From: an uncultured Ramlibacter sp.
GTDB taxonomy: Bacteria; Pseudomonadota; Gammaproteobacteria; Burkholderiales; Burkholderiaceae_C
Reading direction: 5' to 3'
Length of the DNA: 64,000 nt
Assembly: GCF_936925435.1 (NCBI RefSeq)
Contig: NZ_CAKZHQ010000043.1
Location: forward strand, 8,859-72,858
The position numbers and the translations under genes are program-made. Under the pieces are notes generated by a model. The model did not search any database, was not told where the DNA came from, and was given only the letters and a program-made list of their open reading frames with translations. Each line of letters begins with the position of its first letter. Positions within the stretch are counted from its first letter, which is position 1. This document shows, piece by piece, positions 5,157-48,962 of this stretch.

Positions 5157-6617
<1,461 letters not shown>

Positions 6618-12124: not shown

Positions 12125-12199
12125 GGGCGATTAGCTCAGGGGTAGAGCACTGCATTCACACTGCAGGGGTCGCAAGTTCGAAACTTGCATCGCCCACCA
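12125..12199 (+). tRNA. tRNA-Val (anticodon CAC)
   Basis: Folded by hand. Acceptor GGGCGAT/ATCGCCC, D stem GCTC/GAGC, anticodon stem CTGCA/TGCAG with loop TTCACAC, T stem GCAAG/CTTGC with TTCGAAA loop, encoded CCA. Confidence 0.9.
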
Positions 12200-19809: not shown

Positions 19810-20436
19810 TCAGGTCTTGGGCGCGTTCTGTCCCAGGGCGATCTTGAGCAGGTCGGCCACGGTGTTGGCGTTGAGCTTTTCCATGATGTTGGCGCGGTGC
19901 GCTTCCACCGTCTTGATGCTGATGCCCAGGTCGTCGGCGATCTGCTTGTTCAGGCGGCCGGCGACGATGCGCTCGAGCACCTGGGCCTCGCGCGAGGTCA
20001 GCTTGGACAGCAGGGCGTCGCGGCTGGCGGCGCTCTGGTATTCGGCGAAGGCGCCGCGGGCGTGCTCGAGCATGCGCTCGACCAGGCCGACCAGGTCGTC
20101 TTCCTTGAAGGGCTTCTGGATGAAGTCCATCGCGCCCTTCTTCATGGTGTTGACCGCCATGGGCACGTCGCCGTGGCCGGTGATGAAGACGATGGGCAGC
20201 GGCGACTTGCGCTCGATCAGCCGGTCCTGCAACTCCAGCCCGGTCATGCCGCCCATGCGGATATCGACGATCAGGCAGGCCACCTCGCGCGGGTCGTAGC
20301 GCGAGAGGAAGGATTCGGCGGAATCGAAGCAGCGGACCCGGTAGTCCTTGCCTTCCAGCAACCACTGGAGGGAGTCACGGACGGCCTCGTCGTCATCGAC
20401 GACGTAGACCGTGCCTTTCTTCGGAATCAGGCTCAT
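19810..20436 (-). CDS. FixJ/LuxR-type response regulator
   Basis: Real part of ORF 19810..21324: MSLIPKKGTVYVVDDDEAVRDS...LIVDIRMGGMTG (receiver) plus LTSREAQVLERIVAGRLNKQIADDLGISIKTVEAHRANIMEKL (HTH). ATG overlaps the kinase stop (ATGA). Confidence 0.85.
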   Translation of the reverse strand: MSLIPKKGTVYVVDDDEAVRDSLQWLLEGKDYRVRCFDSAESFLSRYDPREVACLIVDIRMGGMTGLELQDRLIERKSPLPIVFITGHGDVPMAVNTMKKGAMDFIQKPFKEDDLVGLVERMLEHARGAFAEYQSAASRDALLSKLTSREAQVLERIVAGRLNKQIADDLGISIKTVEAHRANIMEKLNANTVADLLKIALGQNAPKT

Positions 20437-22976
20437 GCAGGTACCCCGGTGTGCTTGTTGGCGACGGAATGGATCGCGGCCGACACCGGAATCCAGAATG
20501 AGAAACGGCAGCCGGCGACCTCTGATCCATTGTAGATGTTCTCCGCCTGCATCCTGCCCTGGTGCGACTCCACGATGGTGCGGCACAGGTTCAGGCCGAT
20601 GCCCATGCCCTCGACCTTGGTCGAGAAGAAGGCCTCGTACAGGCGGTCCATCACCTCGGGCGCCAGGCCCGCGCCCGAGTCGAGCACCGAGAACTCCACC
20701 ACCGATTGCAGGTCCTCCATCCGCGGCACGACGCGCAGCTCCACGCTGCGCCGCGCGGTCGGCCGGCGCGCATGCTCGATCGATTCGGCAGCGTTCTTCA
20801 GGAGGTTGACCAGCACCTGCTCGATCAGGATGGGGTCGACCAGCAGCATGGGCAAGCGCGCCGCAACGTAGTGCGACAGCCGCACGTTGCGCCGGCGCAG
20901 CTCGATCTCGGCCAGTTCCACCGCCTCGGTCACCATCGGCCCCACCTCGGACAGGGTGCGGTTGGGTTCGCTGCGCTTCACGAAGCTGCGGATGCGCTGG
21001 ATGATCTGGCCGGCGCGCTGGGCCTGGCGGGCCGTCTTCTCCAGCGCCGCCAGCAGGGCTTCTTCGTCGATCTGCTTGCTCTTGATGCGCGAGACCAGGC
21101 CGTTGCAGTAGTTGTTGATGGCCGTCAGCGGCTGGTTCAGCTCGTGGGCCACGCTCGACGCCATCTCGCCCATGGTGATCAGGCGGCTGGCCGACTGGGC
21201 CCGCTCGGCCTGGGCGGCCGACTGCTCCTCGGCATGGCGGCGCGGCGTGATGTCGGTGGCGATCACCATCTGCGCCAGCCGGCCGTCGACCCAGTTGAGG
21301 TAGCGCGAGCGCACCTCCAGCCACTTGCCCAGCTCGGGCACGAAGATCTCGGCGTTCTCCGACACGGCGGCGGTGAGCTGGCCGGTGGGCAGGCCGACAA
21401 AGGAGTCGACCTCGTCGAGCGCTTCATCGGTGGTGCTGCGTGGGTGCTCGGGCACGCCGGCCTGGGCCACCAGTTGCAGATGGCCGACGGTCTGCACGCC
21501 GAACCACAGGCGGTACAGCTTGTTGGCGAACAGCAGTTCCTCGCTGCCCAGTGGCGCCACGGAGACCGAGGCGTCGAGCGCCTCCAGCACGGTGGTGAAG
21601 CGCTCATAGGAGGCCGATAACTGCTCGCGGATGCGGTTGGGCTCGGTGATGTCGGTCATCGAGGTCATCCAGCCGGTCTGGTGGGCCTTGGCGTCGACCA
21701 GGGGTGAGACATAGAGCCGGGCGTCGAACAGGCCGCCGTCCTTGCGCTTGACCCGCACCTGGAAGCCGCCGGGCGTGGTGCGGCCGTGGATCTCGTCGTC
21801 CAGCCGCGCCGCCAGCTGCTCGCGGTCGGCGTCCGGCCAGTAGGGGAAGGGCGGCGTGCGACCGACCAGCTCGGCCTCGGTCCAGCCTGTCATCTGGCAG
21901 AACGCGGCGTTCACATAGGTGATGCGGCCCTGCATGTCCAGTGCCCGCATGCCGGTGAGCATGGAGTTCTCCATGGCGCGGCGGAAATTGGTCTCGGCGA
22001 TCAAGGCCTGCTGGGCCTGCATGCGCCGCCGGGTGTGGCGCCAGTTGGCGATCAGCATCCAGGCGGTCATGGCCGACAGGGCGCCGACCAGCCAGAACAG
22101 GCCGCTGCCTATCATGCCCAGCGAGGTGCGGTAGGCCTGGGCCCGGATGATCAGGCCGTTGCCCACCGGCGAGACCGGCACCTCGTACTCGTTGTTCTGT
22201 GGCGCCGCCCATGGCAGCAGGTTGGTCGCCGGGTTGCGCGGCGGCACGGCCATGCCGGCGAGCAGGCGGCCCTTGCCATCGAGCAGGGCCACGGCGTACT
22301 TGGCCGAGACTTCGGCCGGCACACCGTAGCGCAGCAGGCTGTCGATCGAATACTCGCCCAGGATGACGCCGCCAAAGCGCCCCTGTTCGGCCAGCGGCAC
22401 GTGCAGCTGCAGCAGGCCGCTGCTGTCGGGGCTGGCCGCCGGCTGCGAATAGACAGGCTGCTGCAGATCGCGCGCCAGGCTGTACATGGCTTCGGTCTCG
22501 CCTGGCCTCAGCACCTCGCCGGTCACGCGCAACTGGCCGCTGGCCAGGCTGGGTGCGGCGTAGCTGGCCTTGATGCGGCGGCGCTCGTCGATCCAGGCCA
22601 GCGACTGCAGCTCCGGGTACTGGATCACCATGGACTCGGCGCGGCCGACGAATTCCTCAGGGTCGACTTCCTTGTTGGAGATGTCGCGCGCGATGCGCAT
22701 CAGCTGCTCCTGGCGCTCGAGCAGGCGCAGGCGCACGCGCTGCTGGGCGTATTCGACGTCGCGCTTGACGGCTTCCTGCTCGCGGTCCATCTCCTCGAGC
22801 CGCAGGTACCAGAAGGCCGCGATGATGGCTGACAGAAACAGCAGCACGGCCGCCAACGGCGCCAGCATGGCGAAACGGTCCTGCCGGCCGGGCGTCTGCT
22901 TGCGCCACCAGCGGCGCATCCAGCGCGTCGGCGGCGCCGCTTCGTGCAGTTCGGGGACGACGGAATTGTCTTGCAT
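20433..22976 (-). CDS. membrane sensor histidine kinase with periplasmic domain and PAS domain
   Basis: Two hydrophobic segments flank a region of about 270 aa. PAS (GRITYVNAAFCQMTGWTEAELVGR), H-box SSVAHELNQPLTAI, N/G boxes LLKNAAESI, DSGAGL, GMGIGL. Start is uncertain: ATG at 22976 or GTG at 23012. Confidence 0.8.
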   Translation of the reverse strand: MQDNSVVPELHEAAPPTRWMRRWWRKQTPGRQDRFAMLAPLAAVLLFLSAIIAAFWYLRLEEMDREQEAVKRDVEYAQQRVRLRLLERQEQLMRIARDISNKEVDPEEFVGRAESMVIQYPELQSLAWIDERRRIKASYAAPSLASGQLRVTGEVLRPGETEAMYSLARDLQQPVYSQPAASPDSSGLLQLHVPLAEQGRFGGVILGEYSIDSLLRYGVPAEVSAKYAVALLDGKGRLLAGMAVPPRNPATNLLPWAAPQNNEYEVPVSPVGNGLIIRAQAYRTSLGMIGSGLFWLVGALSAMTAWMLIANWRHTRRRMQAQQALIAETNFRRAMENSMLTGMRALDMQGRITYVNAAFCQMTGWTEAELVGRTPPFPYWPDADREQLAARLDDEIHGRTTPGGFQVRVKRKDGGLFDARLYVSPLVDAKAHQTGWMTSMTDITEPNRIREQLSASYERFTTVLEALDASVSVAPLGSEELLFANKLYRLWFGVQTVGHLQLVAQAGVPEHPRSTTDEALDEVDSFVGLPTGQLTAAVSENAEIFVPELGKWLEVRSRYLNWVDGRLAQMVIATDITPRRHAEEQSAAQAERAQSASRLITMGEMASSVAHELNQPLTAINNYCNGLVSRIKSKQIDEEALLAALEKTARQAQRAGQIIQRIRSFVKRSEPNRTLSEVGPMVTEAVELAEIELRRRNVRLSHYVAARLPMLLVDPILIEQVLVNLLKNAAESIEHARRPTARRSVELRVVPRMEDLQSVVEFSVLDSGAGLAPEVMDRLYEAFFSTKVEGMGIGLNLCRTIVESHQGRMQAENIYNGSEVAGCRFSFWIPVSAAIHSVANKHTGVPA

Positions 22977-23049
22977 CAGCAGAGTGTAGGGTGCGCCAAT
23001 GCTGCGCCGCACCCAGGTTTATTCATAATGTGAAACGTGTACGCGCCAT

Positions 23050-23139: not shown

Positions 23140-25869
23140 ATGTCTGCACAGCCCGACAACCTGTTCGGCTCGGCCGCTAATGACGCGGACGCCGTCGAAA
23201 CCCGTGAATGGATCGATGCGCTGTCCGCAGTCATCGCCGCCGAAGGCCACGAGCGCGGCCACTTCCTGCTGGAGCAACTGCTGGAGCAGGCGCGCCAGGA
23301 AGGCATCGACATGCCTTTTTCGGCCACCACCGGTTACGTCAACACCATCGAGACCTCCGAAGAAGAGCGTTGCCCCGGCAACCTGGAGATCGAGGAGCGC
23401 CTGCGCGCCTACATGCGCTGGAACGCCATGGCCATGGTGGTCAAGGCCAACCGCCTGCATCCCGCCGACGGCGGTGACCTGGGCGGCCACATCAGCTCGT
23501 TTGCTTCGGTGGCCAACATGTTCGGCGCCGGCTTCAACCACTTCTGGCATGCCGAGAGCAACGAGCCGGGCAAGGAACACGGCGGCGACTGCCTCTACAT
23601 CCAGGGCCACAGCTCGCCCGGCGTCTACGCCCGCGCCTTTCTGGAAGGCCGCATCAGCGAGGAGCAGCTGCTCAACTTCCGCCAGGAAGTCGACGGCAAG
23701 GGCATCTCCAGCTACCCGCATCCCAAGCTGATGCCCGAGTTCTGGCAGTTCCCCACCGTTTCCATGGGCCTGGGCCCGCTGATGGCGATCTACCAGGCGC
23801 GCTTCCTGAAGTACCTGCATGCCCGCGGCATCGCCAACACCGAGAACCGCAAGGTCTGGGTCTTCTGCGGCGACGGCGAGATGGACGAGGTCGAGTCGCT
23901 GGGCGCCATCGGCGTGGCTGCGCGCGAGAAGCTCGACAACCTGGTCTTCGTCGTCAACTGCAACCTGCAGCGGCTCGATGGTCCGGTGCGCGGCAACGGC
24001 AAGATCATCCAGGAGCTCGAAGGCGAGTTCCGCGGCGCCGGCTGGAACGTCATCAAGCTGATCTGGGGCAGCTACTGGGACCCGCTGCTGGCGCGCGACA
24101 AGGAAGGCATCCTGCGCAAGGTCATGATGGACACGGTCGACGGCGACTACCAGGCCATGAAGGCCAATGACGGTGCCTTCGTGCGCAAGAACTTCTTCGG
24201 CCGCCATCCCAAGGCCCTGGAGATGGTTGCCAAGATGAGCGACGAGGACATCTGGCGCCTGCAGCGCGGCGGCCACGACCCGCAGAAGGTCTATGCCGCG
24301 TTCCACAAGGCCGTCAACCACAAGGGCCAGCCGACGGTGCTGCTGGTCAAGACGGTCAAGGGCTTCGGCATGGGCAAGAGCGGCGAGGGCCGCAACACGG
24401 CGCACCAGACCAAGAAGCTGGGCGACGACGACATCCGCGCCTTCCGCGACCGCTTCAACATCCCGATTCCGGACGAGCAGCTGGCCGAGGTGCCCTTCTA
24501 CAAGCCGGCCGACCACACGCCCGAGATGCAGTACCTGCACGAGCGCCGCAAGGCCCTGGGCGGCTACCTGCCGCACCGCCGCGTCAAGGCCGACGAGCAG
24601 ATCGCCGTGCCGCCGCTGGAAGCCTTCAAGGCGGTGCTCGAGCCCACGGTCGAGGGCCGCGAGATCAGCACCACCCAGGCCTACGTGCGTTTCCTGTCGG
24701 CGCTGCTGCGCGACAAGGACCTGGGCCCGCGCGCCGTGCCCATCCTGGTCGATGAGGCCCGCACCTTCGGCATGGAAGGCCTGTTCCGCCAGATCGGCAT
24801 CTACAACCACGAAGGCCAGAACTACACGCCGCAGGACAGAGACCAGGTCTCCTACTACAAGGAAGAGAAGAACGGCCAGATCCTGCAAGAGGGCATCAAC
24901 GAGGCCGGCGGCATGGCCAGCTGGATCGCCGCGGCGACGTCGTACTCGACGAACAACCGCATCATGGTGCCGTTCTACATCTACTACTCGATGTTCGGCC
25001 TGCAGCGCGTGGGCGACCTGTGCTGGGCGGCCGGCGACATGCAGGCCCGCGGCTTCCTGCTGGGCGGCACCTCGGGCCGCACCACGCTCAACGGCGAAGG
25101 CCTGCAGCATGAGGACGGCCACAGCCACATCATGGCCGGCACCATCCCCAACTGCGTGAGCTACGACCCGACCTTCGCCCACGAAGTCGCGGTGATCATG
25201 CAGCATGGCCTCAAGCGCATGGTGGAAAAGCAGGAGAACGTCTTCTACTACATCACCTTGCTCAACGAAAACTACCCCATGCCCGGCCTGCAGCCCGGCA
25301 CCGAGGAGCAGATCGTCAAGGGCATGTACCTGTTCAAGGAAGGCGCCAAGCTCACCCCGCGCGTGCAGCTGCTGGGCTCGGGCACCATCTTGCGCGAGTC
25401 GCTGGCGGCGCAGGAGATGCTGGAGAAGGAATGGGGCGTGGCGGCCAACGTCTGGAGCTGCCCCAGCTTCAACGAGCTGGCCCGCGACGGCCAGGACTGC
25501 GAGCGCTGGAACCTGCTGCATCCCACCGAGAAGGCCCGCGTCTCCTTCGTGGCCCAGCAGCTGGACAAGCACACCGGCCCGGTGGTCGCGTCGACCGACT
25601 ACATGAAGGCCTATGCCGAGCAGATCCGCCCCTACGTGCAGAACTCCACCAAGGGCGGCCGCACTTTCAAGGTGCTGGGCACGGACGGCTTTGGCCGCAG
25701 CGACTTCCGCAGCAAGCTGCGCGAGCACTTCGAAATCAACCGCCACTACATCGTGCTGGCCGCGCTCAAGGCGCTGAGCGAGGAGGGCACGGTGCCGGTC
25801 GCCAAGGTGGCCGAAGCCATTGCCAAATACGGGATCAAGGCCGACAAGATCAACCCGCTGCACGCGTAA
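23140..25869 (+). CDS. aceE: pyruvate dehydrogenase E1 component (homodimeric type)
   Basis: 909 aa. AAGGAGA RBS. Typical AceE sequence throughout (GGHISSFAS, VWVFCGDGEMDE, RLDGPVRGNGKIIQELE). Confidence 0.95.
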   Translation: MSAQPDNLFGSAANDADAVETREWIDALSAVIAAEGHERGHFLLEQLLEQARQEGIDMPFSATTGYVNTIETSEEERCPGNLEIEERLRAYMRWNAMAMVVKANRLHPADGGDLGGHISSFASVANMFGAGFNHFWHAESNEPGKEHGGDCLYIQGHSSPGVYARAFLEGRISEEQLLNFRQEVDGKGISSYPHPKLMPEFWQFPTVSMGLGPLMAIYQARFLKYLHARGIANTENRKVWVFCGDGEMDEVESLGAIGVAAREKLDNLVFVVNCNLQRLDGPVRGNGKIIQELEGEFRGAGWNVIKLIWGSYWDPLLARDKEGILRKVMMDTVDGDYQAMKANDGAFVRKNFFGRHPKALEMVAKMSDEDIWRLQRGGHDPQKVYAAFHKAVNHKGQPTVLLVKTVKGFGMGKSGEGRNTAHQTKKLGDDDIRAFRDRFNIPIPDEQLAEVPFYKPADHTPEMQYLHERRKALGGYLPHRRVKADEQIAVPPLEAFKAVLEPTVEGREISTTQAYVRFLSALLRDKDLGPRAVPILVDEARTFGMEGLFRQIGIYNHEGQNYTPQDRDQVSYYKEEKNGQILQEGINEAGGMASWIAAATSYSTNNRIMVPFYIYYSMFGLQRVGDLCWAAGDMQARGFLLGGTSGRTTLNGEGLQHEDGHSHIMAGTIPNCVSYDPTFAHEVAVIMQHGLKRMVEKQENVFYYITLLNENYPMPGLQPGTEEQIVKGMYLFKEGAKLTPRVQLLGSGTILRESLAAQEMLEKEWGVAANVWSCPSFNELARDGQDCERWNLLHPTEKARVSFVAQQLDKHTGPVVASTDYMKAYAEQIRPYVQNSTKGGRTFKVLGTDGFGRSDFRSKLREHFEINRHYIVLAALKALSEEGTVPVAKVAEAIAKYGIKADKINPLHA

Positions 25870-25895: not shown

Positions 25896-27563
25896 ATGGC
25901 GCTGATCGAAGTGCAGGTTCCCGACATCGGGGACTTCGACGAGGTTGCGGTCATCGAGCTGCTGGTCAAGCCCGGCGACACGGTGAAGGCCGAGCAATCC
26001 CTGGTGACGGTGGAATCCGACAAGGCCTCGATGGAGATCCCATCTGCCGCCGCTGGCGTGGTCAAGGAACTGCGCATCAAGGTCGGCGATAAAGTGAAGC
26101 AAGGATCGGTGCTGCTGGTACTGGAAGCCGCCGGCGCGGCCGCCGCTCCCGCTCCCGCTCCCGCTCCCGCTCCGGCCCCTGTTCCCGAGCAAAAACAGGT
26201 TCCAGCCCCCGCCATTCCTTCGCCGTCTGCTCCTGTTTCAGGAGCAAGCACGGGCCCGGTCGAGGTCCGCGTTCCGGACATCGGCGACTTCAAGGATGTC
26301 GCCGTCATCGAGATCCTGGTCAAGCCGGGCGATGCCATCGGGCTGGAGCAATCGCTGATCACCGTGGAGTCGGACAAGGCGTCCATGGAGATCCCCTCGG
26401 GCGCGGCGGGCGTGCTCAAGGAGATGAAGGTCAAGATCGGCGATGTGGTCAACATCGGTGACCTGGTGGCCATCCTGGAAGGTTCTACAGCCGCAGCGCC
26501 TGCCGTTGCGGTTGCGGCAGCATCGGCGCCCATTGCGGCCGCGGCCTCCGCGCCCGTGGCCCAGCCGTCGGAACGCGCCCTGCCCACGGCAGCCTTGCCG
26601 CCCCACGAGCCCACCGCGCCGACCGGCACGCTGCCCCATGCCTCGCCTTCGGTGCGCAAGTTCGCGCGCGAGCTGGGCGTGCCGCTGGAAGAAGTCAAGG
26701 GCACGGGCCCCAAGAGCCGCGTCACGCAGGACGACGTCCAGGCCTTCACCAAGGCGGTGATGCAGGGCGACACCCGCACCAAGGCCGCGGCGGCCAAGGC
26801 GCCTGCCGGCGGTGGTGGTGGCGGCGGCGAGTTGAACCTGCTGCCCTGGCCCAAGGTCGACTTCGCCAAGTTCGGCCCGGTCGAGCGCAAGGAGATGTCG
26901 CGCATCAAGAAGATCAGCGGCGCCAACCTGCACCGCAACTGGGTGATGATCCCGCACGTCACCAGCTACGACGATGCCGACATCACCGAGCTCGAAGCCT
27001 TCCGCGTGGCCACCAACAAGGACAACGAGAAGTCCGGCATCAAGGTCACCATGCTGGCCTTCGTCATCAAGGCGGTGGTCGCGGCGCTCAAGAAATTCCC
27101 GGACTTCAATGCCAGCCTGGACGGTGACCAGCTGGTCTACAAGCAGTACTTCCACATCGGCTTTGCCGCCGACACGCCCAATGGCCTGGTGGTGCCGGTG
27201 CTGCGCGATGTCGACAAGAAGGGCATCCTGCAGATCAGCCAGGAGATGGGCGAACTGGCCAAGAAGGCCCGCGACGGCAAGCTCAGTGCCGGTGACATGC
27301 AAGGCGGCTGTTTCTCCATCAGCTCGCTGGGTGGCCTGGGCACGACCTACTTCACGCCGCTGATCAACGCGCCCGAGGTCGCCATCCTGGGCCTGTCGCG
27401 CAGCAGCATGAAGCCGGTCTGGGACGGCAGCGCTTTCCAGCCGCGCCTGGTCATGCCGCTGTCGCTGTCCTATGACCACCGCGTCATCGACGGCGCGGCC
27501 GGCGCGCGTTTCAACACCTACCTGGCCCAGGTGCTGGCGGACTTCCGCCGCGTCCTGTTGTAA
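25896..27563 (+). CDS. aceF: dihydrolipoyllysine-residue acetyltransferase (E2), two lipoyl domains
   Basis: Start [14 protein letters not shown] after GGAG. Two [10 protein letters not shown] lipoyl motifs, Ala/Pro linkers, E3-binding segment [12 protein letters not shown], catalytic [10 protein letters not shown]. Confidence 0.95.
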
Positions 27564-27575
27564 GGGCGCAGCGCG

Positions 27576-28166
27576 ATGACCACAGTCGTTGTTGTGAGGA
27601 AGGCCGGTCAGGTCGCCATCGCCGCCGACACCCTGGTGACCTTCGGCGACACCCGGCTGGCGCACCGCTTCGAGGCCAACACCAAGATCTTCCAGGTCGA
27701 GACCGACGCCGGGCCCAGCTACATTGGCATGGCCGGCACCGTGGCCCATTTCCCGGTGCTGCGCAAGGCCCTGGGCGCGATGCCGCGCGAGCTGCTCAAG
27801 CTGACCAGCAAGGACGATGTCTTCGACACCTTCACCAAGCTGCATCCCTACCTGAAGGACAACTTCTTCCTGCAGACCAAGGAAGAAGACAGCGACCCCT
27901 ACGAGTCCAGCCAGTTCAGCGTGGTGATCGCCAATGCCAGCGGCATCTACGGCCTGTACAGCTACCGCGAGGTCTTCGAGTTCAAGGAATTCTGGGGCAT
28001 CGGTTCCGGCCGCAGCTTTGCCCTGGGCGCCATGCACGCGGCCTACGGCAAGGCCAAGACCGCCAGGGAAGTGGCGCAGGCCGGCATCGCCGCCGGCTGC
28101 GAGTTCGACCGCAACTCCGCAGGTCCCTGCGACGTGTTCACAATCAAAATGAAAGGCGCCAAATGA
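27576..28166 (+). CDS. proteasome beta/HslV-like Ntn-hydrolase homologue (possibly the BPH type)
   Basis: 196 aa. [19 protein letters not shown] (Thr directly after Met, Asp18), NTKIF (Lys37), GIGSG at 141-145. These align by eye with HslV: TTIVSVRRNGHVVIAGD..KKVRR..AIGSGG. The stop overlaps the lpdA ATG. Confidence 0.65.
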
Positions 28167-29983
28167 GCGTCATTGACATTCAAGTGCCGGACATCGGCGA
28201 TTTCGATGAGGTTGCTGTCATCGAGGTTCTGGTCAAGCCCGGCGACACGGTCAAGGCCGAACAGTCGCTGGTGACGGTGGAGTCCGACAAGGCCTCGATG
28301 GAGATTCCGTCCAGCCATGCCGGCGTGGTCAAGGAACTCAAGATCAAGGTCGGCGACAAGGTCAAGCAAGGTTCCGTGTTGCTGACTCTGGAAGCGGCTG
28401 CTGGCGCCGCTGCACCGGCCGCAGCCCCTGTTTCGGCACCGAATCAGCCTGCAGCCCCCGTGCAGGCTCCCTCATCTGCTCCTGTTTCTGTAGCGCCTAC
28501 GGCCAATTACGGCGGCGGTGTCGACCAGGAATGCGACGTGCTAGTGCTCGGCGGCGGCCCCGGCGGCTACTCGGCCGCCTTCCGCGCCGCCGACCTGGGG
28601 CTCAAGGTCGTCCTGGTCGAGCGCTATGCCACCCTGGGTGGCGTCTGCCTGAACGTGGGCTGCATTCCCTCCAAGGCCCTGCTGCACGTGGCAGCGGTGA
28701 TGGACGAGGTCAGCCACTTCGAGGCCCTGGGCGTGAGCTACGGCAAGCCGGTGGTCGATCTGGCCAAGCTCAAGGCCCACAAGAACAAGGTCCTGTCCAA
28801 GCTCACCGGCGGCCTCACGGCCATGGCCAAGATGCGCAAGGTGACGGTGGTGCGCGGCTACGGCCAGTTCCTGGACCCGCACCATCTCGAGGTCGAAGAG
28901 ACCACGGGCCAGGCCCAGGAGCGCACGGGCAAGAAGCAGACCGTCAAGTTCAAGAGTGCCATCATCGCCGCCGGCTCGCAGGCCGTGCACCTGCCCTTCA
29001 TGCCCAAGGACCCGCGCGTGGTGGACTCCACCGGCGCGCTGGAGCTGGGCAGCAGCCCGAAGCGCATGCTCATCCTGGGCGGCGGCATCATCGGCCTGGA
29101 GATGGGCACGGTCTATTCGACGCTGGGCGCGCGCCTGGACGTGGTCGAGATGCTGGACGGCCTGATGCAGGGCGCCGACCGCGACCTGGTCAAGGTCTGG
29201 CAGAAGATGAACACGCCGCGCTTTGACAACATCATGCTCAAGACCAAGACCGTGGGCGCCGAGGCGACCCAGGATGGCATTCGCGTGACGTTCGAAGGCG
29301 AGCAGGCACCCAAGGAGCCGCAGGTCTATGACCTGGTGCTGCAGGCCGTGGGCCGCACGCCCAACGGCAAGAAGATCGGTGCTGACAAAGCCGGTGTGGC
29401 GGTGAGCGAGCGTGGCTTCATCGCGGTGGACATCCAGATGCGCACCAACGTACCCCACATCTTTGCCATCGGCGACGTCGTCGGCCAGCCCATGCTGGCC
29501 CATAAGGCGGTGCACGAGGGCCATGTGGCGGCGGAAGTCGCGGCCGGCAGCCTCAACGGCGACCAGGCGTTGCAACGCGCCGCCTTCAATGCCCGCGTCA
29601 TCCCCAGCGTGGCCTATACAGATCCCGAGGTGGCCTGGGTGGGTCTGACCGAGGACCAGGCCAAGGCCCAGGGCATCGCCATCAAGAAGGGCCACTTCCC
29701 CTGGTCGGCTTCCGGCCGTGCCATCGCCAATACCCGGGACGAGGGCTTCACCAAGCTGCTGTTCGACGCGCAAACCCATCGCATCCTGGGCGGCGGCATC
29801 GTCGGCACCCATGCGGGCGACATGATCGGCGAGGTGGCCCTGGCCATCGAGATGGGTGCCGACGAGATCGACATCGGCAAGACCATCCATCCGCATCCCA
29901 CGCTGGGCGAGAGCATCGGCATGGCGGCGGAAATCGCCCACGGCACCTGCACCGACGTGCCGCCGCCGCGTAAGCCAAGCTGA
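28163..29983 (+). CDS. lpdA: dihydrolipoyl dehydrogenase (E3) with N-terminal lipoyl domain
   Basis: 606 aa. N-terminal lipoyl domain ([10 protein letters not shown]), Ala/Pro linker, then GGGPGGY, redox disulfide [19 protein letters not shown]-type C-terminus (IHPHPTLGE). Confidence 0.9.
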
Positions 29984-29989
29984 TTTTTT

Positions 29990-30454
<465 letters not shown>

Positions 30455-30476: not shown

Positions 30477-30950
30477 TCAGCGGCAGCGCAGGGGCAGCAG
30501 GCCGGCGGGCACGTCGGTCTTGTTGACGCCCTGCGCCTTCATCTTGTCCGGCGCCGTGGCCGGGCCGCACAACCACGTGATGGGAACGACAGGCGTGTCC
30601 TCCACCACCGCCGGCCGCAGGCTCAAGGTCTTGCCCAGCAGGGCCCGGTTGGCCTTGTTGCCGAAGCGGATGTGGATGGCGCCGTCCTGCACGGTCACGC
30701 TGCTGACCACCGCGTTGACGATCTTGTCCGCCTGCGGCAGGCCGGCCGCGGCGTTGTCGGCCGGCAGCGGCTGCCCCAGCAGCCAGGCCGCGGCCACGGG
30801 CGGCTTGGCAATGTCGGCCAGGGGCAGGGCCTCGGCCACCTGCTCGCGCACGATGCGGTCAAGGTAGCTGGGCAGGGCGATCAGCGAGAGGATGGCGATC
30901 ACGGCGATCACCACCATGAGCTCGATCAGGGTGAATCCGTTGCGACGCAT
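30477..30950 (-). CDS. type IV pilin (prepilin with N-terminal methylation site)
   Basis: MRRNG/FTLIELMVVIAVIAILSLIALPSY (G-F cleavage site, Glu5). C-terminal Cys...Cys loop (WLCGPATAP...PLRCR). Confidence 0.8.
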   Translation of the reverse strand: MRRNGFTLIELMVVIAVIAILSLIALPSYLDRIVREQVAEALPLADIAKPPVAAAWLLGQPLPADNAAAGLPQADKIVNAVVSSVTVQDGAIHIRFGNKANRALLGKTLSLRPAVVEDTPVVPITWLCGPATAPDKMKAQGVNKTDVPAGLLPLRCR

Positions 30951-30977: not shown

Positions 30978-31763
30978 TCAGGGCCGCACGGCCGGCGTCT
31001 CCACCGCCATGCCCATGGCGCGCGCCGCCAGGTGCAACTCCAGCGCCACCATGTCCGGGCTGTTGGCGGCAAAGGGCTCGGCTCGCACGCCGGTCAGGCA
31101 GCCGCGCAGGCGGCGTTGCAGCGAGCCCAGGCCCTGCCATTCCAGCCGGTAGACCGGGTAGCCTGTCGCATGGCCTTGCGGGATGGTGCTGCCCGCGAGC
31201 TTGCCGCCGGCCAGCTGGTCGTGGCACTGGGCACAGGACAGGTCGAGCTGGCCCAGGCGCTGTGCGAACAGCTGGGCGCCGCGCTCGCGCAGGGGCGCCA
31301 GCCGCGGGTCGGCATCGGGCGCCATCGGAAGTCCGCGCGACTGCATGGCCACATAGGTTTCCAGGCCCAGCAACTGCGCGTGTTCCGCGCCCCAGGCCGG
31401 CAGCTGCTGGTGGCGCTGGCGGCACAGGTTGATGCGCATGCCCAGGTTGACCGCGCTGGCCGAGGTCGCATCCCACGCGGGATAGCGCGCCGCCACGCCG
31501 GCCATGCTGGTGGCCGCCTCCCCGTGGCAGCTGGCGCAGGAGCGCGACTGCGGGCCCTCGGCCTTGCGCCACAGGGCCTGGCCGTCCTGCACCCAGAGCA
31601 TGGCGGGATTGGCGTTGTCGTCGCGCTGCATGGCCTGGACGTCCGGTCCCATGAAGTCGAAGCTCGAGCGGCGCGCGTCGAGGACGGGCGAGGGGGAGGG
31701 CGGGGCGGCCGCGCAACCCAGCAGCACGGCCAGCAGCGCAGTGGCGAGCGCGCGCCGGCTCAT
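30978..31763 (-). CDS. soxA: SoxA-like dihaem cytochrome c (lipobox signal)
   Basis: Real part of ORF 30978..32150: MSRRALATALLAVLLGCAAA. Two CxxCH motifs (CASCH, CAQCH). RRLRGCLTGVRAEP, the conserved Cys-ligand region. ATG overlaps the soxZ stop. Confidence 0.8.
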   Translation of the reverse strand: MSRRALATALLAVLLGCAAAPPSPSPVLDARRSSFDFMGPDVQAMQRDDNANPAMLWVQDGQALWRKAEGPQSRSCASCHGEAATSMAGVAARYPAWDATSASAVNLGMRINLCRQRHQQLPAWGAEHAQLLGLETYVAMQSRGLPMAPDADPRLAPLRERGAQLFAQRLGQLDLSCAQCHDQLAGGKLAGSTIPQGHATGYPVYRLEWQGLGSLQRRLRGCLTGVRAEPFAANSPDMVALELHLAARAMGMAVETPAVRP

Positions 31764-32080
31764 GTGACGGACAAATCCACGCGCTCGGTCTGGGCGAAGC
31801 CGTTGTCGCCCTGCCACTCGAACTCCAGCGTGCCGGAGTCGGTCGCCAGCAGGTGGAACTGCAGGTAGGGATTGGCCGACACGGCGGAGAACAGTTCGGC
31901 CGTGAACACCGTCTCGCCGTTGTAGCGGCAGGCAAAGCGCTGGATGATGTCGCGCGGCTGCACCTTGCCCTCGGCGTTGGGCCGGAAACCCGTCTCCATG
32001 GGATGGGCGATGGTGGCGCGGATCTCCACCACCTCGCCCCGGCGCGCGGTCTTGGGGACGCTCAGCAGGGTGCGGGCCAT
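31760..32080 (-). CDS. soxZ: SoxZ-like carrier-complex subunit
   Basis: 106 aa. GEVVEIRATIAHPMETGFR...NGETVF...SANPYLQF, the SoxZ pattern. Confidence 0.8.
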   Translation of the reverse strand: MARTLLSVPKTARRGEVVEIRATIAHPMETGFRPNAEGKVQPRDIIQRFACRYNGETVFTAELFSAVSANPYLQFHLLATDSGTLEFEWQGDNGFAQTERVDLSVT

Positions 32081-43160: not shown

Positions 43161-43294
43161 GATCGATGGCACAATTGAGGTCGCAACCCGGCCCCTTCCA
43201 GCCACAGTCGCATCCGCCAACCGGTCCAGCCGTGTCGCGGAAGGTTTCTACAACCAGCCAAGGCCTCCTGCAGGGGGGCGGAAAGTAGCGCAGC

Positions 43295-46162
43295 ATGAGT
43301 GACAGCACCGTCTACACGGCCTACCAGGGCAATTCGTATCTCTTCGGCGGCAACGCGCCCTATGTCGAGGAGATGTACGAGAACTACCTCGCCAACCCCG
43401 GCAGCGTGCCCGACAACTGGCGTGAATACTTCGACGCCTTGCAGAACGTTCCCGCCGCCGACGGCAGCAACGCCAAGGACATCGCCCACCTGCCGGTGAT
43501 CAATGCCTTTGCCGAGCGCGCCAAGCAGGGCGGCACCCGCGTGGTCCAGGCCACCGGCGCCGATTCCGAAATGGGCCGCAAGCGCACCGCGGTGCAGCAG
43601 CTGATCGCCGCCTACCGCAACGTCGGCGCCCGCTGGGCCGACCTGGACCCGCTCAAGCGCGCCGAGCGCGAGAAGATCCCCGAGCTGGACCCGTCCTTCT
43701 ACGGCTTCTCCGACGCCGACCAGGAAACCATCTTCAACACCAGCAACACCTTCTTCGGCAAGGAGACGATGTCGCTGCGCGAGCTGCTCAACGCGCTGCG
43801 CGAAACCTACTGCGGCACCATCGGCGCCGAGTACATGTACATCAGCGACCAGGGCAAGAAGCGCTGGTGGCAGCAAAAGCTCGAATCGATCCGCAGCAAG
43901 CCCAACTTCCTGGCCGATCAGAAAAAGCAGATCCTCGACCGCGTCACCGCGGCCGAAGGCCTGGAGCGCTTCCTGCACACCAAGTACGTGGGCCAGAAGC
44001 GCTTCTCGCTGGAAGGCGGCGAAAGCTTCATCGCCTCGATGGACGAACTGATCCAGCGTTCCGGCGCCAAGGGCGTGCAGGAGATCGTGATCGGCATGGC
44101 CCACCGCGGTCGCCTGAACGTGCTGGTCAACACCATGGGCAAGATGCCCGCCGACCTGTTCGCCGAGTTCGACCACACGGCCAAGGAAGACCTGCCCTCC
44201 GGTGACGTCAAGTACCACCAGGGCTTCAGCTCGGACGTGACCACCCCCGGCGGCCCGGTCCACCTGAGCCTGGCCTTCAACCCCTCGCACCTGGAGATCG
44301 TCAACCCGGTGGTCGAGGGCTCGGTGCGGGCCCGCATGGACCGCCGCGCCGACCCGCAGGGCAAGCAGGTGCTGCCCGTGCAGGTGCACGGCGACGCTGC
44401 CTTCGCCGGCCAGGGCGTGGTGATGGAAACCCTGGCGCTGGCCGAAACCCGCGGCTACTTCACCGGCGGCACGGTCCACATCGTCATCAACAACCAGATC
44501 GGCTTCACCACCTCCGATCCGCGCGACGCGCGCTCCACCCTGTACTGCACCGACATCGTCAAGATGATCGAGGCGCCGGTGCTGCACGTCAACGGCGACG
44601 ATCCCGAGGCAGTGGTGCTGGCCACCCAGATCGCGCTGGACTACCGCATGGAGTTCAGCAAGGACGTGGTGCTGGACATCGTGTGTTTCCGCAAGCTGGG
44701 CCACAACGAGCAGGACACGCCGGCGCTGACCCAGCCGCTGATGTACAAGAAGATCGGCACCCATCCGGGCACGCGCAAGCTCTACGCCGACAAGCTGTCG
44801 GCCCAGGGCCTGGGTGACACGCTGGGCGAGGACATGGTCAAGGCCTACCGCGCCGCCATGGACGCCGGCAAGCACACGGTCGACCCGGTGCTGACCAACT
44901 TCAAGAGCAAGTTCGCGGTCGACTGGAGCCCCTACCTGGGCAAGAAGTGGACCGACGCCGCCGACACCGCCATTCCGACGGCCGAGTGGAAGCGACTGGC
45001 CGAGAAGATCACCACCGTACCGGCCGGCTTCACGCCGCACCCGCTGGTCAACAAGGTGCTGCTCGACCGCGCCGCCATGGGCCGCGGCGATGTCAACGTC
45101 GACTGGGGCATGGGCGAGCACATGGCTTTCGCCTCCCTGGTGGCCAGCGGCTACCCGGTGCGCCTGTCGGGCGAGGACTGCGGCCGCGGCACCTTCACCC
45201 ACCGCCACTCGGTGCTGCACGACCAGAACCGCGAGAAGTTCGACGAAGGCACCTACGTGCCGCTGTGCCACGTGGCCGACAACCAGGCGCCTTATGTCGT
45301 CATCGACTCCATCCTGTCGGAAGAGGCGGTGCTGGGCTTCGAGTACGGCTACGCCTCGAACGATCCCAACACCCTGGTGATCTGGGAAGCCCAGTTCGGC
45401 GACTTCGCCAACGGCGCCCAGGTGGTGATCGACCAGTTCATCGCCTCGGGCGAGGTCAAGTGGGGCCGCGTCAACGGCATCACCCTGATGCTGCCGCACG
45501 GCTACGAAGGCCAGGGCCCGGAGCACAGCTCGGCCCGCCTGGAGCGCTTCATGCAGCTGTCGGCCGACACCAACATGCAGGTGGTGCAGCCCACGACGGC
45601 CAGCCAGATCTTCCACGTGCTGCGCCGCCAGATGGTGCGCCCGCTGCGCAAGCCGCTGATCATCATGACGCCCAAGTCGCTGCTGCGCAACAAGGACGCC
45701 ACCTCGCCGCTGTCGGAGTTCACCAGGGGCGGCTTCCAGACCGTCATCCCGGAGAACAAGGACCTCAAGGCCGACAAGGTCAAGCGCATCGTCGTGTGCT
45801 CCGGCAAGGTCTATTTCGATCTGGCCAAGAAGCGCGAGGAGAAGGGCTTTGACGACGCAGTCATCCTGCGCGTCGAGCAGCTCTATCCCTTCCCGCACAA
45901 GGTGTTCGCCGCCGAGCTCAAGAAGTACCCCAACGCCACCGACATCGTCTGGTGCCAGGACGAGCCGCAGAACCAGGGCGCCTGGTTCTTCGTGCAGCAC
46001 TACATCCACGAGAACATGCTCGACGGCCAGAAGCTGGGTTACTCCGGCCGTGCCGCCTCGGCCTCGCCGGCGGTGGGCTACTCGCACCTGCACCAGGAGC
46101 AGCAAAAGGCTTTGGTCGACGGCGCCTTCGGCAAGCTCAAGGGCTTCGTGCTCACGAAATAA
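43295..46162 (+). CDS. sucA: 2-oxoglutarate dehydrogenase E1 component
   Basis: 955 aa. Typical SucA sequence throughout (MAHRGRLNVL, GDAAFAGQGVV, HGYEGQGPEHSSARLERF). Confidence 0.95.
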   Translation: MSDSTVYTAYQGNSYLFGGNAPYVEEMYENYLANPGSVPDNWREYFDALQNVPAADGSNAKDIAHLPVINAFAERAKQGGTRVVQATGADSEMGRKRTAVQQLIAAYRNVGARWADLDPLKRAEREKIPELDPSFYGFSDADQETIFNTSNTFFGKETMSLRELLNALRETYCGTIGAEYMYISDQGKKRWWQQKLESIRSKPNFLADQKKQILDRVTAAEGLERFLHTKYVGQKRFSLEGGESFIASMDELIQRSGAKGVQEIVIGMAHRGRLNVLVNTMGKMPADLFAEFDHTAKEDLPSGDVKYHQGFSSDVTTPGGPVHLSLAFNPSHLEIVNPVVEGSVRARMDRRADPQGKQVLPVQVHGDAAFAGQGVVMETLALAETRGYFTGGTVHIVINNQIGFTTSDPRDARSTLYCTDIVKMIEAPVLHVNGDDPEAVVLATQIALDYRMEFSKDVVLDIVCFRKLGHNEQDTPALTQPLMYKKIGTHPGTRKLYADKLSAQGLGDTLGEDMVKAYRAAMDAGKHTVDPVLTNFKSKFAVDWSPYLGKKWTDAADTAIPTAEWKRLAEKITTVPAGFTPHPLVNKVLLDRAAMGRGDVNVDWGMGEHMAFASLVASGYPVRLSGEDCGRGTFTHRHSVLHDQNREKFDEGTYVPLCHVADNQAPYVVIDSILSEEAVLGFEYGYASNDPNTLVIWEAQFGDFANGAQVVIDQFIASGEVKWGRVNGITLMLPHGYEGQGPEHSSARLERFMQLSADTNMQVVQPTTASQIFHVLRRQMVRPLRKPLIIMTPKSLLRNKDATSPLSEFTRGGFQTVIPENKDLKADKVKRIVVCSGKVYFDLAKKREEKGFDDAVILRVEQLYPFPHKVFAAELKKYPNATDIVWCQDEPQNQGAWFFVQHYIHENMLDGQKLGYSGRAASASPAVGYSHLHQEQQKALVDGAFGKLKGFVLTK

Positions 46163-46225
46163 AGCGGGACAACGAGGCCCGGTTGCGCCGGCCTCGTCCT
46201 TCGAAAAAAATACTTAGGAACAACA

Positions 46226-47485
<1,260 letters not shown>

Positions 47486-47495
47486 ACGGACGATA

Positions 47496-47548
47496 ACGCG
47501 GCCTGAAGGCCGCGTCCTTGTCCATGATTTTCGGAATCAAAAATCATG
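47496..47548 (+). other. two stem-loops in the sucB-lpd spacer, the second including the lpd start codon
   Basis: ACGCGGCC-TGAA-GGCCGCGT (47496-47515). CATGATTTT-CGGAATCA-AAAATCATG (47523-47548), whose last ATG is the lpd start at 47546. Confidence 0.45.
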
Positions 47549-48961: not shown

Positions 48962-48962
48962 T

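Follow-up and report, generated by a model that had tools for sequence, protein, structure and literature searches.

A BPH-family proteasome homologue encoded between E2 and E3 in the pyruvate dehydrogenase operon of a Ramlibacter-like bacterium

Main

Why would an operon for the pyruvate dehydrogenase (PDH) complex carry, between the genes for its E2 and E3 components, a gene for a proteasome-like hydrolase? The question is raised by a short open reading frame, here called bph, on a contig of an uncultured Ramlibacter sp. (NZ_CAKZHQ010000043.1), of which a stretch of 64,000 nucleotides was analysed (the window). A sequence-only reading of this stretch had taken the product for a betaproteobacterial proteasome homologue (BPH) with an N-terminal threonine nucleophile, whose native context is the PDH operon and whose role is tied to the PDH complex. 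It had also stated that BPH was structurally characterised without a known substrate or unfoldase, in agreement with the literature (PMC5777263, PMC8665760).

The presence of BPH inside the PDH operon was reported in 2008 by Valas and Bourne, whose proposal was a role for BPH in degrading or regulating the complex (PMC3235984), and was also described by Fuchs et al. in 2018 (PMC5777263); the family descends from HslV (PMC5777263, PMC3235984). Published operon contexts of BPH are the PDH complex, argG or hsp33, with the PDH context documented for Cupriavidus, Ralstonia and Polaromonas (PMC5777263, PMC3235984). The BPHs of Cupriavidus metallidurans (Cm-BPH) and Thiobacillus denitrificans (Td-BPH) are 14-mers by SAXS, electron microscopy and crystallography. 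Experiments on both proteins have also established that the initiator methionine is removed (demonstrated by mass spectrometry in Cm-BPH), that Thr1 is modified by epoxomicin and reacts with MG132, that the S1 pocket is hydrophobic and that an unfoldase is lacking (PMC5777263).

Results

bph is a genuine and conserved cistron of the PDH operon

The aceF gene ends with a TAA at 27561-27563, exactly 12 nt upstream of the bph ATG, and the stop codon of bph overlaps the lpdA start by 4 nt (Table 1). Both junctions lie where the sequence-only reading had placed them, and its view of bph as an integral cistron of an aceE-aceF-X-lpdA operon is borne out by these gaps (12 nt and -4 nt) and by the order kept in relatives. 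The ATGA overlap is a translational-coupling signature. Judged from this layout, bph appears to be co-transcribed with aceE, aceF and lpdA and is probably translationally coupled to the PDH genes. A promoter and terminator scan, whose matches occurred at background frequency and were uninformative, found no internal plus-strand terminator between aceF, bph and lpdA.

Table 1 Features of the bph locus (positions within the window)
Feature	Position	Strand	Basis or remark
aceE, pyruvate dehydrogenase E1 (homodimeric type, 909 aa), first gene of the operon	23140..25869	+	TIGR00759 1429.6 bits (cut-off 859.9)
aceF, dihydrolipoyllysine acetyltransferase E2, 555 aa	25896..27563	+	TIGR01348 735 bits
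bph, BPH-family proteasome/HslV-like N-terminal-nucleophile hydrolase subunit	27576..28166	+	196 codons/aa including initiator Met
Thr2 codon (mature Thr1)	27579..27581	+	predicted catalytic nucleophile after Met removal
Asp18 codon GAC (mature Asp17), catalytic triad	27627..27629	+	Asp in 71/71 representatives; invariant versus Cm-BPH and Td-BPH
Lys37 codon AAG (proteasome Lys33, Td-BPH Lys37)	27684..27686	+	Lys in 70/71; invariant versus Cm-BPH and Td-BPH
Gly54 codon, oxyanion-hole glycine (Td-BPH Gly50)	27735..27737	+	Gly in 68/71; invariant versus Cm-BPH and Td-BPH
Extended acidic pore loop, residues 99-114	27870..27917	+	BPH-specific loop lining the central pore
Gly143-Ser144-Gly145 codons, GSG active-site loop	28002..28010	+	Gly143 71/71, Ser144 62/71, Gly145 70/71
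ATGA overlap of bph TGA (28164-28166) and lpdA ATG (28163-28165)	28163..28166	+	read from sequence
lpdA, dihydrolipoyl dehydrogenase E3 of the PDH complex, 606 aa	28163..29983	+	TIGR01350 478 bits

The flanking genes are those of the PDH complex, as had been proposed, with E2 upstream and a lipoyl-bearing E3 downstream. Specifically, aceE encodes PDH_E1_M and Transketolase_N domains (Pfam); aceF encodes two Biotin_lipoyl stretches, an E3_binding domain and the catalytic 2-oxoacid_dh domain; and the lpdA product joins an N-terminal lipoyl domain (PF00364 Biotin_lipoyl, residues 5-76) through an Ala/Pro-rich linker to Pyr_redox_2 and Pyr_redox_dim. The true aceF start is at position 25896, an ATG preceded by a GGAGA ribosome-binding site, and not at 25431, where the ORF opens; orthologue alignments begin at residues 141-156 of that longer ORF. 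The lipoyl domains of E2 and E3 form direct repeats flanking bph. Recent gene conversion between them was considered and rejected because the codons that differ do so mostly synonymously (24 synonymous, 9 non-synonymous), and the two domains look like old paralogues under purifying selection.

Other neighbours of bph encode a PAS histidine kinase, an EVE-domain protein and a pilin. No gene for HslV, HslU or another unfoldase was found beside bph, and a tblastn search with E. coli HslV returned no further HslV homologue in the window. The only AAA-type gene seen among the window genes scanned encodes an AFG1-like ATPase, 21 kb from bph and directly 3' of a 2-oxoglutarate dehydrogenase E3 gene (OGDH operon).

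bph is a real gene, conserved far beyond chance. A database of 5.8 billion proteins holds 2945 homologues at E<=1e-3, the best of them 90-91% identical, and GC3 is 0.89, usual for genes of this 68% GC window. Purifying selection on bph is as strong as on the PDH enzymes themselves (dN/dS 0.09-0.26 against eight orthologues, compared with 0.13-0.43 for the flanking PDH genes). Long spurious ORFs are common in GC-rich genomes (61 ORFs of at least 80 aa are listed in 13 kb), but a chance ORF or decaying pseudogene within a GC-rich intergenic spacer, for which no positive evidence was counted, is refuted by the thousands of homologues, the dN/dS values, a coding-gene pattern of GC by codon position, the crystallised orthologues and the fold model described below (pLDDT 97), and its probability is vanishingly small. 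A minus-strand ORF overlapping bph (26238-28037) has a GC3 of less than 0.80 and was therefore set aside as a shadow ORF of GC-rich sequence.

Sequence and fold place the product in the BPH family

The bph product scores 27.8 bits against the Pfam Proteasome profile (PF00227; gathering score 22.4). In phmmer searches it matches Cm-BPH (PDB 5OVU) at E=2.2e-65, with 57% identity over the full length, and Td-BPH (PDB 5OVS) at E=5.1e-31, with 40% identity. Its best HslV match, T. maritima HslV, reaches E=5.4e-3, and the NCBIfam HslV models, which align residues 1-58 only, score far below their cut-offs (NF003964, 27.8 bits against 137; TIGR03692, 26.8 against 157.75). The top NCBIfam match by E-value is an archaeal beta subunit (28 bits, cut-off 224). 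The resemblance to HslV that the sequence-only reading had noted by eye is thus real and weak. Labels of 'HslVU peptidase subunit' given by JGI to close homologues appear to be over-annotations, because the HslV cut-offs are unmet and an hslU neighbour is absent.

An AlphaFold monomer model, built on a diverse alignment of 71 sequences, has a pLDDT of 97 and a pTM of 0.92, against a pLDDT of 48 with a shallow set of 21 sequences sharing 80% identity or more. The model has the proteasome/HslV Ntn fold, and its first two Foldseek matches are 5ovu (E=2e-22, TM 0.83/0.87) and 5ovs (E=4e-19), the latter giving the best superposition (TM 0.86/0.91, r.m.s.d. 1.6 A). HslV structures follow as the next-best fold matches (E=9e-11), and all top matches, at probability 1.00, are BPH, HslV or 20S beta subunits. 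The profile search and structure prediction, both proposed with the sequence-only reading as checks on it, therefore upheld the assignment to a BPH-type Thr-N-terminal hydrolase. The sequence, catalytic residues, pore loop and fold fit BPH better than HslV, and we consider it nearly certain that the product is a BPH family member, the orthologue of the crystallised C. metallidurans protein. Two long homologue entries that looked like fusions, and might have pointed to a partner, were rejected as frameshifted, Arg-rich miscalls: P0156 (366 aa, BPH with a lipoyl domain) and P0139 (402 aa).

The 20S proteasome beta subunit and Anbu have the fold and catalytic residues in common with BPH, and the 20S proteasome also its sevenfold ring symmetry; BPH differs from the 20S proteasome in having no alpha rings, no propeptide and two rings only. 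Anbu, unlike BPH, forms an open split ring and is encoded in a transglutaminase/COG2307/COG2308 operon (PMC3235984, PMC8665760).

An intact active site and an acidic pore loop

Alignment with Cm-BPH and Td-BPH, together with a residue census of 71 diverse representatives of the family, covers every element of the proteasome-type active site (Table 1). Codon coordinates confirm the residues singled out in the sequence-only reading, namely a threonine directly after the methionine, Asp18, Lys37 and the GIGSG motif at residues 141-145 that contains the GSG loop. The protein begins MTT, without a propeptide, as do the products of 79 of 80 related loci; in the family at large the nucleophile position is held by Ser in 48 and by Thr in 21 of the 71 representatives. 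The role of the Lys37 equivalent has been described, and the Ser of the GSG loop corresponds to Td-BPH Ser139, which is hydrogen-bonded to Thr1 (PMC5777263).

The acidic pore loop described for BPH (PMC5777263, PMC8665760) forms a coil in the AlphaFold model, with helix 79-97 before it and strand 115-120 after it. It carries 5 acidic residues and 1 basic residue, compared with means of 4.6 and 0.9 over about 16 residues in the 71 representatives, and its DPYESSQ motif is conserved in Cm-BPH. Td-BPH shares the catalytic set and an acidic loop that differs in detail (EDKEDDLESSR); its tetradecameric double ring and epoxomicin adduct (5OVS/5OVT) define the mechanism of the family (PMC5777263), and its gene sits in an argG context as opposed to the PDH operon. 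Cm-BPH shares with the window protein the threonine directly after Met, the Asp, Lys, Gly and GSG residues, the pore loop and a gene located between PDH E2 and E3. What sets the window protein apart from Cm-BPH is four extra residues, ETDA (42-45), in the hairpin that follows Lys37, a slightly longer C terminus and the host, a Ramlibacter-like member of the Comamonadaceae as against the Burkholderiaceae; there is no functional distinction between the two. The gene described here is an ordinary orthologue of the already known BPH, because papers of 2008 and 2018 had reported the family as well as its location in the PDH operon.

The PDH position is fixed in one clade

The genome scan took in the closest 80 relatives, all Comamonadaceae. 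Wherever the contig reaches, the order aceE-aceF-bph-lpdA is invariant among these loci, with aceE upstream of aceF in each locus long enough to tell and the lipoyl domain of E3 found in all loci with lpdA visible. The aceF-to-bph gap ranges from -4 to 115 nt and the bph-to-lpdA gap from -4 to 86 nt; the 4-nt overlap of bph and lpdA recurs in 25 of the 76 loci with a measurable junction, the remainder having gaps of -1 to 86 nt. The aceF-bph-lpdA order also holds for a variant with Ser at position 1 (L161), and the same operon order is found in Ralstonia solanacearum, whose BPH is 60% identical to that of the window. Every BPH-containing PDH operon seen encodes the unusual lipoyl-bearing E3 with a long disordered linker. 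In C. necator, the locus tags H16_A1374, A1375 and A1377 denote E1, E2 and E3 (PMC3734047), which leaves A1376 between E2 and E3 and is consistent with a cluster pdhA-pdhB-ORF3-pdhL with ORF3 unassigned, as named in the sequence-only reading; a search for H16_A1376 gave no result.

A Thiobacillus-like clade, sampled by a metagenome scan seeded on Td-BPH, presents an altogether different context: argD-argF-argG-(Ppnp)-BPH-DUF520-DJ-1/PfpI. Here 48 of 49 loci have argG upstream of BPH, 57 of 58 have DUF520 on the downstream side, and no PDH gene occurs within 6 kb of BPH in any of 80 loci. Other relatives adjoin mgtE, Peptidase_C13 with glycosyltransferases, or ApbE; of eight 50%-identity representatives whose contexts were looked up, four were informative and three lay on contigs too short for neighbours. 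The catalytic site and acidic loop are the same in BPHs from these unrelated contexts. The PDH position is therefore specific to one clade, comprising Comamonadaceae, Ralstonia and Cupriavidus. For this clade the claim that the PDH operon is the native context of BPH stands, as does the aceF-X-lpdA order suggested for checking across the Betaproteobacteria; neither extends to the Thiobacillus-like clade, where the gene follows argG, and other relatives likewise keep the gene elsewhere.

Discussion

The explanation that we favour is that bph encodes a BPH orthologue acting as an ATP-independent peptidase of narrow range that is not dedicated to PDH. We hold this explanation as a whole with moderate confidence, lower than for the identity of the protein because the functional part is much less certain. 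By analogy with the characterised orthologues, the initiator methionine would be removed to expose Thr1. Given the likeness to Cm-BPH and Td-BPH, the subunits would be expected to form a double ring of fourteen identical copies whose Thr1/Asp17/Lys sites look inward onto a chamber, entered through a pore lined by the long acidic loop, and no AAA+ unfoldase would be involved. Such a self-compartmentalised peptidase would probably accept few substrates: peptides or disordered, probably non-acidic, chain segments able to pass the acidic pore. Placement in the PDH operon would provide strong, growth-linked co-expression with central metabolism, BPH itself presumably being neither a subunit nor a dedicated partner of the complex. 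Against this reading counts the fact that proteolytic activity has never been measured for any BPH, and for this reason the term 'peptidase' is inferred solely from two observations, that the active site is intact and that inhibitors form adducts.

Another challenge comes from the operon itself. The position between E2 and the lipoyl-bearing E3, strictly conserved over a deep clade with frequent start/stop overlaps, is a linkage tighter than usual hitch-hiking and also counts against our favoured reading. In a rival reading BPH would be, in this clade, a PDH-dedicated protease for quality control or regulation that degrades or trims PDH components, the hypothesis of Valas and Bourne (PMC3235984) and of the sequence-only reading. 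The candidate targets would be E2 and E3 that are carbonylated or otherwise damaged, or else the lipoyl domains and flexible Ala/Pro-rich linkers of the two proteins, since these could pass the pore unaided by an unfoldase, and levels of the complex would be adjusted upon pyruvate scarcity or oxidative stress. The invariant order in the 80 Comamonadaceae loci, the Ser1 variant and R. solanacearum, the recurrent 4-nt overlap with lpdA and the consistent company of a lipoyl-bearing E3 with a disordered linker all speak for such a protease, yet that company may be purely phylogenetic, and orthologues whose active site and pore loop have the same features hold fixed positions beside arginine-biosynthesis genes and elsewhere. 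Moreover, cross-linked pull-downs from C. metallidurans recovered no PDC subunits, and BPH had no effect on oxidised proteins, carbonylated-protein patterns remaining unchanged in vitro and in vivo (PMC5777263). The conserved active site in unrelated contexts and the pull-downs count against a PDH-specific partnership, although the pull-down result is negative and was given as 'data not shown', and the differing gene contexts are compatible with PDH as a substrate because PDH is present in most hosts. We regard a PDH-dedicated protease as unlikely. The role tied to PDH in the sequence-only reading thus coincides with a published proposal; it is not new, and the pull-downs do not favour it.

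BPH may also not be a degradative protease at all, serving instead in ligation or transpeptidation, as does connectase, in small-molecule amide hydrolysis, or as a non-catalytic scaffold or chaperone-like cage. BPH proved wholly inert on all the protease substrates tried, including standard peptides and casein, also with SDS and with pore-loop mutants (PMC5777263); the proteasome-like family includes the monomeric ligase connectase, and the authors caution that a member need not be proteolytic (PMC8665760). A chamber and pore that are unusual in being strongly acidic, and are conserved throughout the family, would fit this reading as well. Conversely, the full proteolytic residue set is conserved in the 71 diverse representatives, with a nucleophile conserved strongly enough to be at odds with a purely structural role; the substrate groove, with its hydrophobic S1 pocket, accommodates peptide-like proteasome inhibitors in a productive manner (PMC5777263); and the closed self-compartmentalising barrel is a hallmark of degradative proteases. 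A non-proteolytic function is, on this evidence, distinctly unlikely. Improbable too is a BPH that serves in Comamonadaceae and Burkholderiaceae as a dedicated PDH processing or turnover factor, acting on the Ala/Pro linkers or lipoyl domains of E2 and the lipoyl-E3; such a role would account for the strictness of the aceF-bph-lpdA order and also for the lack of activity on generic protease substrates.

It is highly improbable that BPH is a second HslV, driven by ATP through the HslU of the cell or another AAA+ ATPase encoded elsewhere. HslV (ClpQ) is the evolutionary parent of BPH and provides its next-best fold matches; the two share the Ntn-hydrolase fold, the Thr1/Asp17/Lys33/GSG chemistry, the lack of a propeptide and a homo-oligomer of two rings, and an AFG1-like ATPase is encoded 21 kb away, a connection that is pure speculation. 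By contrast, HslV is an HslU-dependent dodecamer with a very short pore loop, and BPH, a tetradecamer, has a loop that is long and acidic and lacks an unfoldase. The sevenfold ring mismatches hexameric HslU, HslU was absent from BPH pull-downs even with ATP-gamma-S, no candidate ATPase co-occurs with BPH (PMC5777263), and behaviour independent of ATP and HslU has already been reported. In addition, sequence similarity to HslV is weak, and the window bph has no adjacent hslU.

BPH is among the few self-compartmentalising protease families for which no substrate, partner or phenotype is known. The literature of 2008 and 2018 already covered the family with its structures and catalytic residues, as well as where the gene lies in the PDH operon; the PDH-directed role was already proposed and met with a negative pull-down, and the window locus gives no new handle on function. 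What the survey adds is that one deep clade keeps bph strictly at its PDH position, often with translational coupling, that a sister clade is equally fixed at an unrelated position after argG, and that bph is under purifying selection matching that on the PDH enzymes. These results leave current knowledge of BPH unchanged and sharpen the design of deletion and trap-mutant experiments.

A constrained BPH orthologue within the PDH operon

The bph gene is a constrained orthologue of the beta-proteobacteria proteasome homologue (BPH) embedded in the PDH operon. Its 196-codon frame opens with the ATG at 27576, 12 nt past the aceF stop (TAA, 27561-27563), and closes with a TGA (28164-28166) that shares ATGA with the lpdA start codon, both as claimed by the sequence-only reading; translation likewise returned the claimed N-terminal sequence, Asp18, Lys37 and GIGSG at residues 141-145 (initiator Met counted as 1). 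The true start of aceF is ATG 25896, with a GGAGA ribosome-binding site ahead. On its sequence record bph is a genuine gene, because its codon-position GC pattern is that of coding sequence (GC3 of 0.89), its homologues number in the thousands (2945 at E<=1e-3 in a large protein database; in a 50%-identity representative library, 757 clusters pass E<=1e-3, of which 417 pass E<=1e-10) and its dN/dS against eight orthologues is low (0.09-0.26). The same comparisons gave 0.13-0.43 for aceE, aceF and lpdA, so that constraint on bph is at least as strong.

The proposal that the product is of the BPH type was borne out by profile, sequence and structure searches. The protein scores above the gathering score of Pfam PF00227 (Proteasome), and curated HslV and archaeal/bacterial 20S models match it only far under their cut-offs. 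In the PDB, the Cupriavidus metallidurans BPH (Cm-BPH, 5OVU; E=2.2e-65, 57% identity) and the Thiobacillus denitrificans BPH (Td-BPH, 5OVS/5OVT; E=5.1e-31, 40% identity) were recovered, and the best HslV reached only 5e-3. An AlphaFold model built from a diverse 71-sequence alignment (pLDDT 97, pTM 0.92) has a predicted fold nearest to the BPH crystal structures, Foldseek ranking 5OVU (E=2e-22) and 5OVS (TM 0.86/0.91, rmsd 1.6 A) first, then HslV at about E=1e-10 and 20S beta subunits.

All catalytic features known for BPH are present, namely the nucleophile right behind Met, Asp18, Lys37, the oxyanion Gly54 and the GSG loop, together with a long acidic pore loop. Of 71 diverse family representatives, 48 carry Ser and 21 carry Thr as nucleophile; Asp18 and Gly143 occur in 71/71, Lys37 and Gly145 in 70/71 each, and the pore loop averages 4.6 acidic vs 0.9 basic residues. 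A four-residue insertion, ETDA (residues 42-45; 27699-27710), in the hairpin past the catalytic Lys is common to Comamonadaceae BPHs and a marine representative (P0130), whereas Cm-BPH, Td-BPH and most representatives are without it.

Close orthologues from Ramlibacter, Variovorax terrae and Comamonadaceae MAGs (P0010, P0050, P0094, P0105) are named 'MFS transporter' by NCBI/UniRef, and 'ATP-dependent protease HslVU peptidase subunit' by JGI. Both labels are wrong for a soluble 196-aa BPH, an error that seems to be spreading. Two apparent BPH fusions (P0156 of 366 aa, with a lipoyl domain, and P0139 of 402 aa) were rejected: both are Arg-rich products of frameshifted reading of GC-rich DNA, and surveys of domain architecture could be misled by them.

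Features of the PDH and 2-oxoglutarate dehydrogenase regions of the window
Feature	Coordinates	Strand	Remarks
tRNA-Val (CAC)	12125-12199	(+)	sole tRNA in window
Sensor histidine kinase	20433-23012	(-)	PAS/HisKA/HATPase_c, 859 aa; divergent from aceE
aceE	23140-25869	(+)	upstream of aceF; TIGR00759, 1430 bits
aceF (E2)	25896-27563	(+)	directly upstream of bph; TIGR01348, 735 bits; two lipoyl domains
bph	27576-28166	(+)	196 aa
lpdA (E3, dihydrolipoyl dehydrogenase)	28163-29983	(+)	directly downstream of bph; TIGR01350, 478 bits; N-terminal lipoyl domain, Ala/Pro linker
EVE-domain protein	29990-30454	(-)	downstream of lpdA
Type IV pilin	30477-30950	(-)	downstream of lpdA
SoxZ-like protein	31760-32080	(-)	downstream of lpdA
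sucA RNA motif	43208-43290		RF01070, 68 bits; ahead of 2-oxoglutarate dehydrogenase operon (region 43208-50063)
sucA	43295-46162		2-oxoglutarate dehydrogenase operon
sucB	46226-47485		2-oxoglutarate dehydrogenase operon
Second E3, without lipoyl domain	47546-48961		37% identical to PDH E3 core
AFG1-like ATPase	48963-50063		begins 2 nt past second E3 stop

Genomic context across the family

Scanning a single genome for each species confirmed 578 relatives, and the best 80 of these, all Comamonadaceae (Ramlibacter, at up to 92% identity, Caenimonas, Polaromonas, Curvibacter, Rhodoferax and Pseudorhodoferax among the genera), were analysed; by these matches the window comes from a Ramlibacter-like organism. 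As far as contigs extend, all 80 keep the order aceE-aceF-bph-lpdA and an E3 with a lipoyl domain; among them, spacers run from -4 to 115 nt (aceF-bph) and from -4 to 86 nt (bph-lpdA, with the ATGA overlap in 25/76 loci), and 79/80 bph genes start M-T-T. The order is also kept in Ralstonia solanacearum (60% identity) and in a relative from metagenomic DNA whose nucleophile is Ser (P0121, locus L161), and bph is probably translationally coupled to the operon.

In L161 (bph at 6001-6579), the BPH is 63-65% identical to that of the window, with Ser replacing Thr behind the initiator, and a TTG start overlaps the aceF TGA as TTGA. Its operon reads aceE-aceF-bph-lipoyl-lpdA, with aceE 81% identical to the window aceE; a PAS histidine kinase similar to the one in the window lies upstream of aceE, which suggests that in this lineage the PDH operon keeps a regulatory gene beside it. 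Ser1 BPHs were reported only outside Betaproteobacteria (PMC5777263); L161 is a metagenomic contig. The housekeeping aceE-aceF-bph-lpdA operon lies on the 2.3-Mb PLSDB record 'Ralstonia solanacearum MolK2 plasmid pmega' (L171, NZ_CP115947.1 837428-851994), where it is unexpected; replicon labels may have been swapped.

The PDH position is limited to this clade. None of 80 metagenomic loci of a Thiobacillus-like clade (L081-L160) has a PDH gene within 6 kb of bph; the neighbourhood is argD-argF-argG-(Ppnp)-bph-DUF520-DJ-1/PfpI, with argG upstream in 48/49 loci and DUF520 downstream in 57/58. One example (L142, 2062-8108) reads argD-argF-argG-Ppnp-BPH-DUF520(YajQ-like)-DJ-1/PfpI-CBS, and the published BPH papers examined contain no discussion of the DUF520 and DJ-1/PfpI partners. 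In other representatives bph follows mgtE, lies near ApbE, or is flanked by a Peptidase_C13 gene on one side and glycosyltransferases on the other. The sequence-only reading is partly right in taking the PDH operon as native context: the aceF-bph-lpdA arrangement holds, as far as contigs extend, for the best 80 of 578, for Ralstonia and for L161, and not for the Thiobacillus-like clade, where bph sits at argG, or for representatives placed elsewhere.

Within the window, the E3 lipoyl domain (28163-28393) and the first E2 lipoyl domain (25896-26126) agree at 68/77 protein and 186/231 DNA positions, forming direct repeats either side of the remaining aceF and bph. Their differing codons are 24 synonymous vs 9 non-synonymous, which rules out recent gene conversion; to judge by these codons, they are old paralogues under purifying selection. 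With the AFG1-like ATPase next to the second E3, both 2-oxoacid dehydrogenase operons carry an extra protein-quality-control-type gene by E3. Also encoded past lpdA, on the other strand, are a molybdopterin oxidoreductase subunit and a cytochrome c.

Proposed co-expression or partnership with PDH

The family, its structures, catalytic features and PDH-operon position are already known. BPH was defined by Valas & Bourne 2008 (PMC3235984), who reported its PDH-operon position and proposed that it might degrade the PDH complex, replacing PdhR-type regulation. Fuchs et al. 2018 (PMC5777263) solved Cm-BPH and Td-BPH as tetradecameric double rings with Met removed and Thr1 covalently modified by epoxomicin and MG132, and their account covers the acidic pore loop as well as three settings of the gene (argG, PDC and hsp33 operons); standard peptides and casein were not cleaved, and carbonylated-protein patterns were unaltered. 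A 2021 survey (PMC8665760) still entered BPH without known unfoldase or function, and no later functional paper was found in the literature. The unassigned ORF3 described for the C. necator cluster fits the gap at A1376 among locus tags H16_A1374, A1375 and A1377.

By analogy with the characterised orthologues, the initiator Met would be removed and Thr1 would act as catalytic nucleophile, subunits would form a 14-mer barrel with entry gated by the acidic loop, and the enzyme would work without ATP or an unfoldase. BPH is best read as a narrow-specificity, ATP-independent, self-compartmentalised peptidase whose operon position provides strong growth-linked co-expression rather than physical partnership, because clades fixed in unrelated operons retain the same active site and pore loop and because the one direct test for interaction came out negative: neither PDC subunits nor HslU were recovered in pull-downs that used cross-linker and ATP-gamma-S (PMC5777263). 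Both points weigh against a PDH-dedicated protease cutting E2/E3 linkers or lipoyl domains, and the PDH-linked role suggested by the sequence-only reading is accordingly neither new (PMC3235984) nor favoured by those pull-downs. Such a protease is unlikely but keeps real weight, since the linkage of bph to PDH genes is very strict and deep, the negative pull-down was published as 'data not shown', and varied bph contexts are compatible with PDH as substrate in all hosts. That Thr1 carries out non-proteolytic chemistry seems more improbable still, and stays in play because no BPH activity has ever been measured. As a system for testing what the BPH substrate is, this locus offers no advantage over the Cupriavidus one already published.
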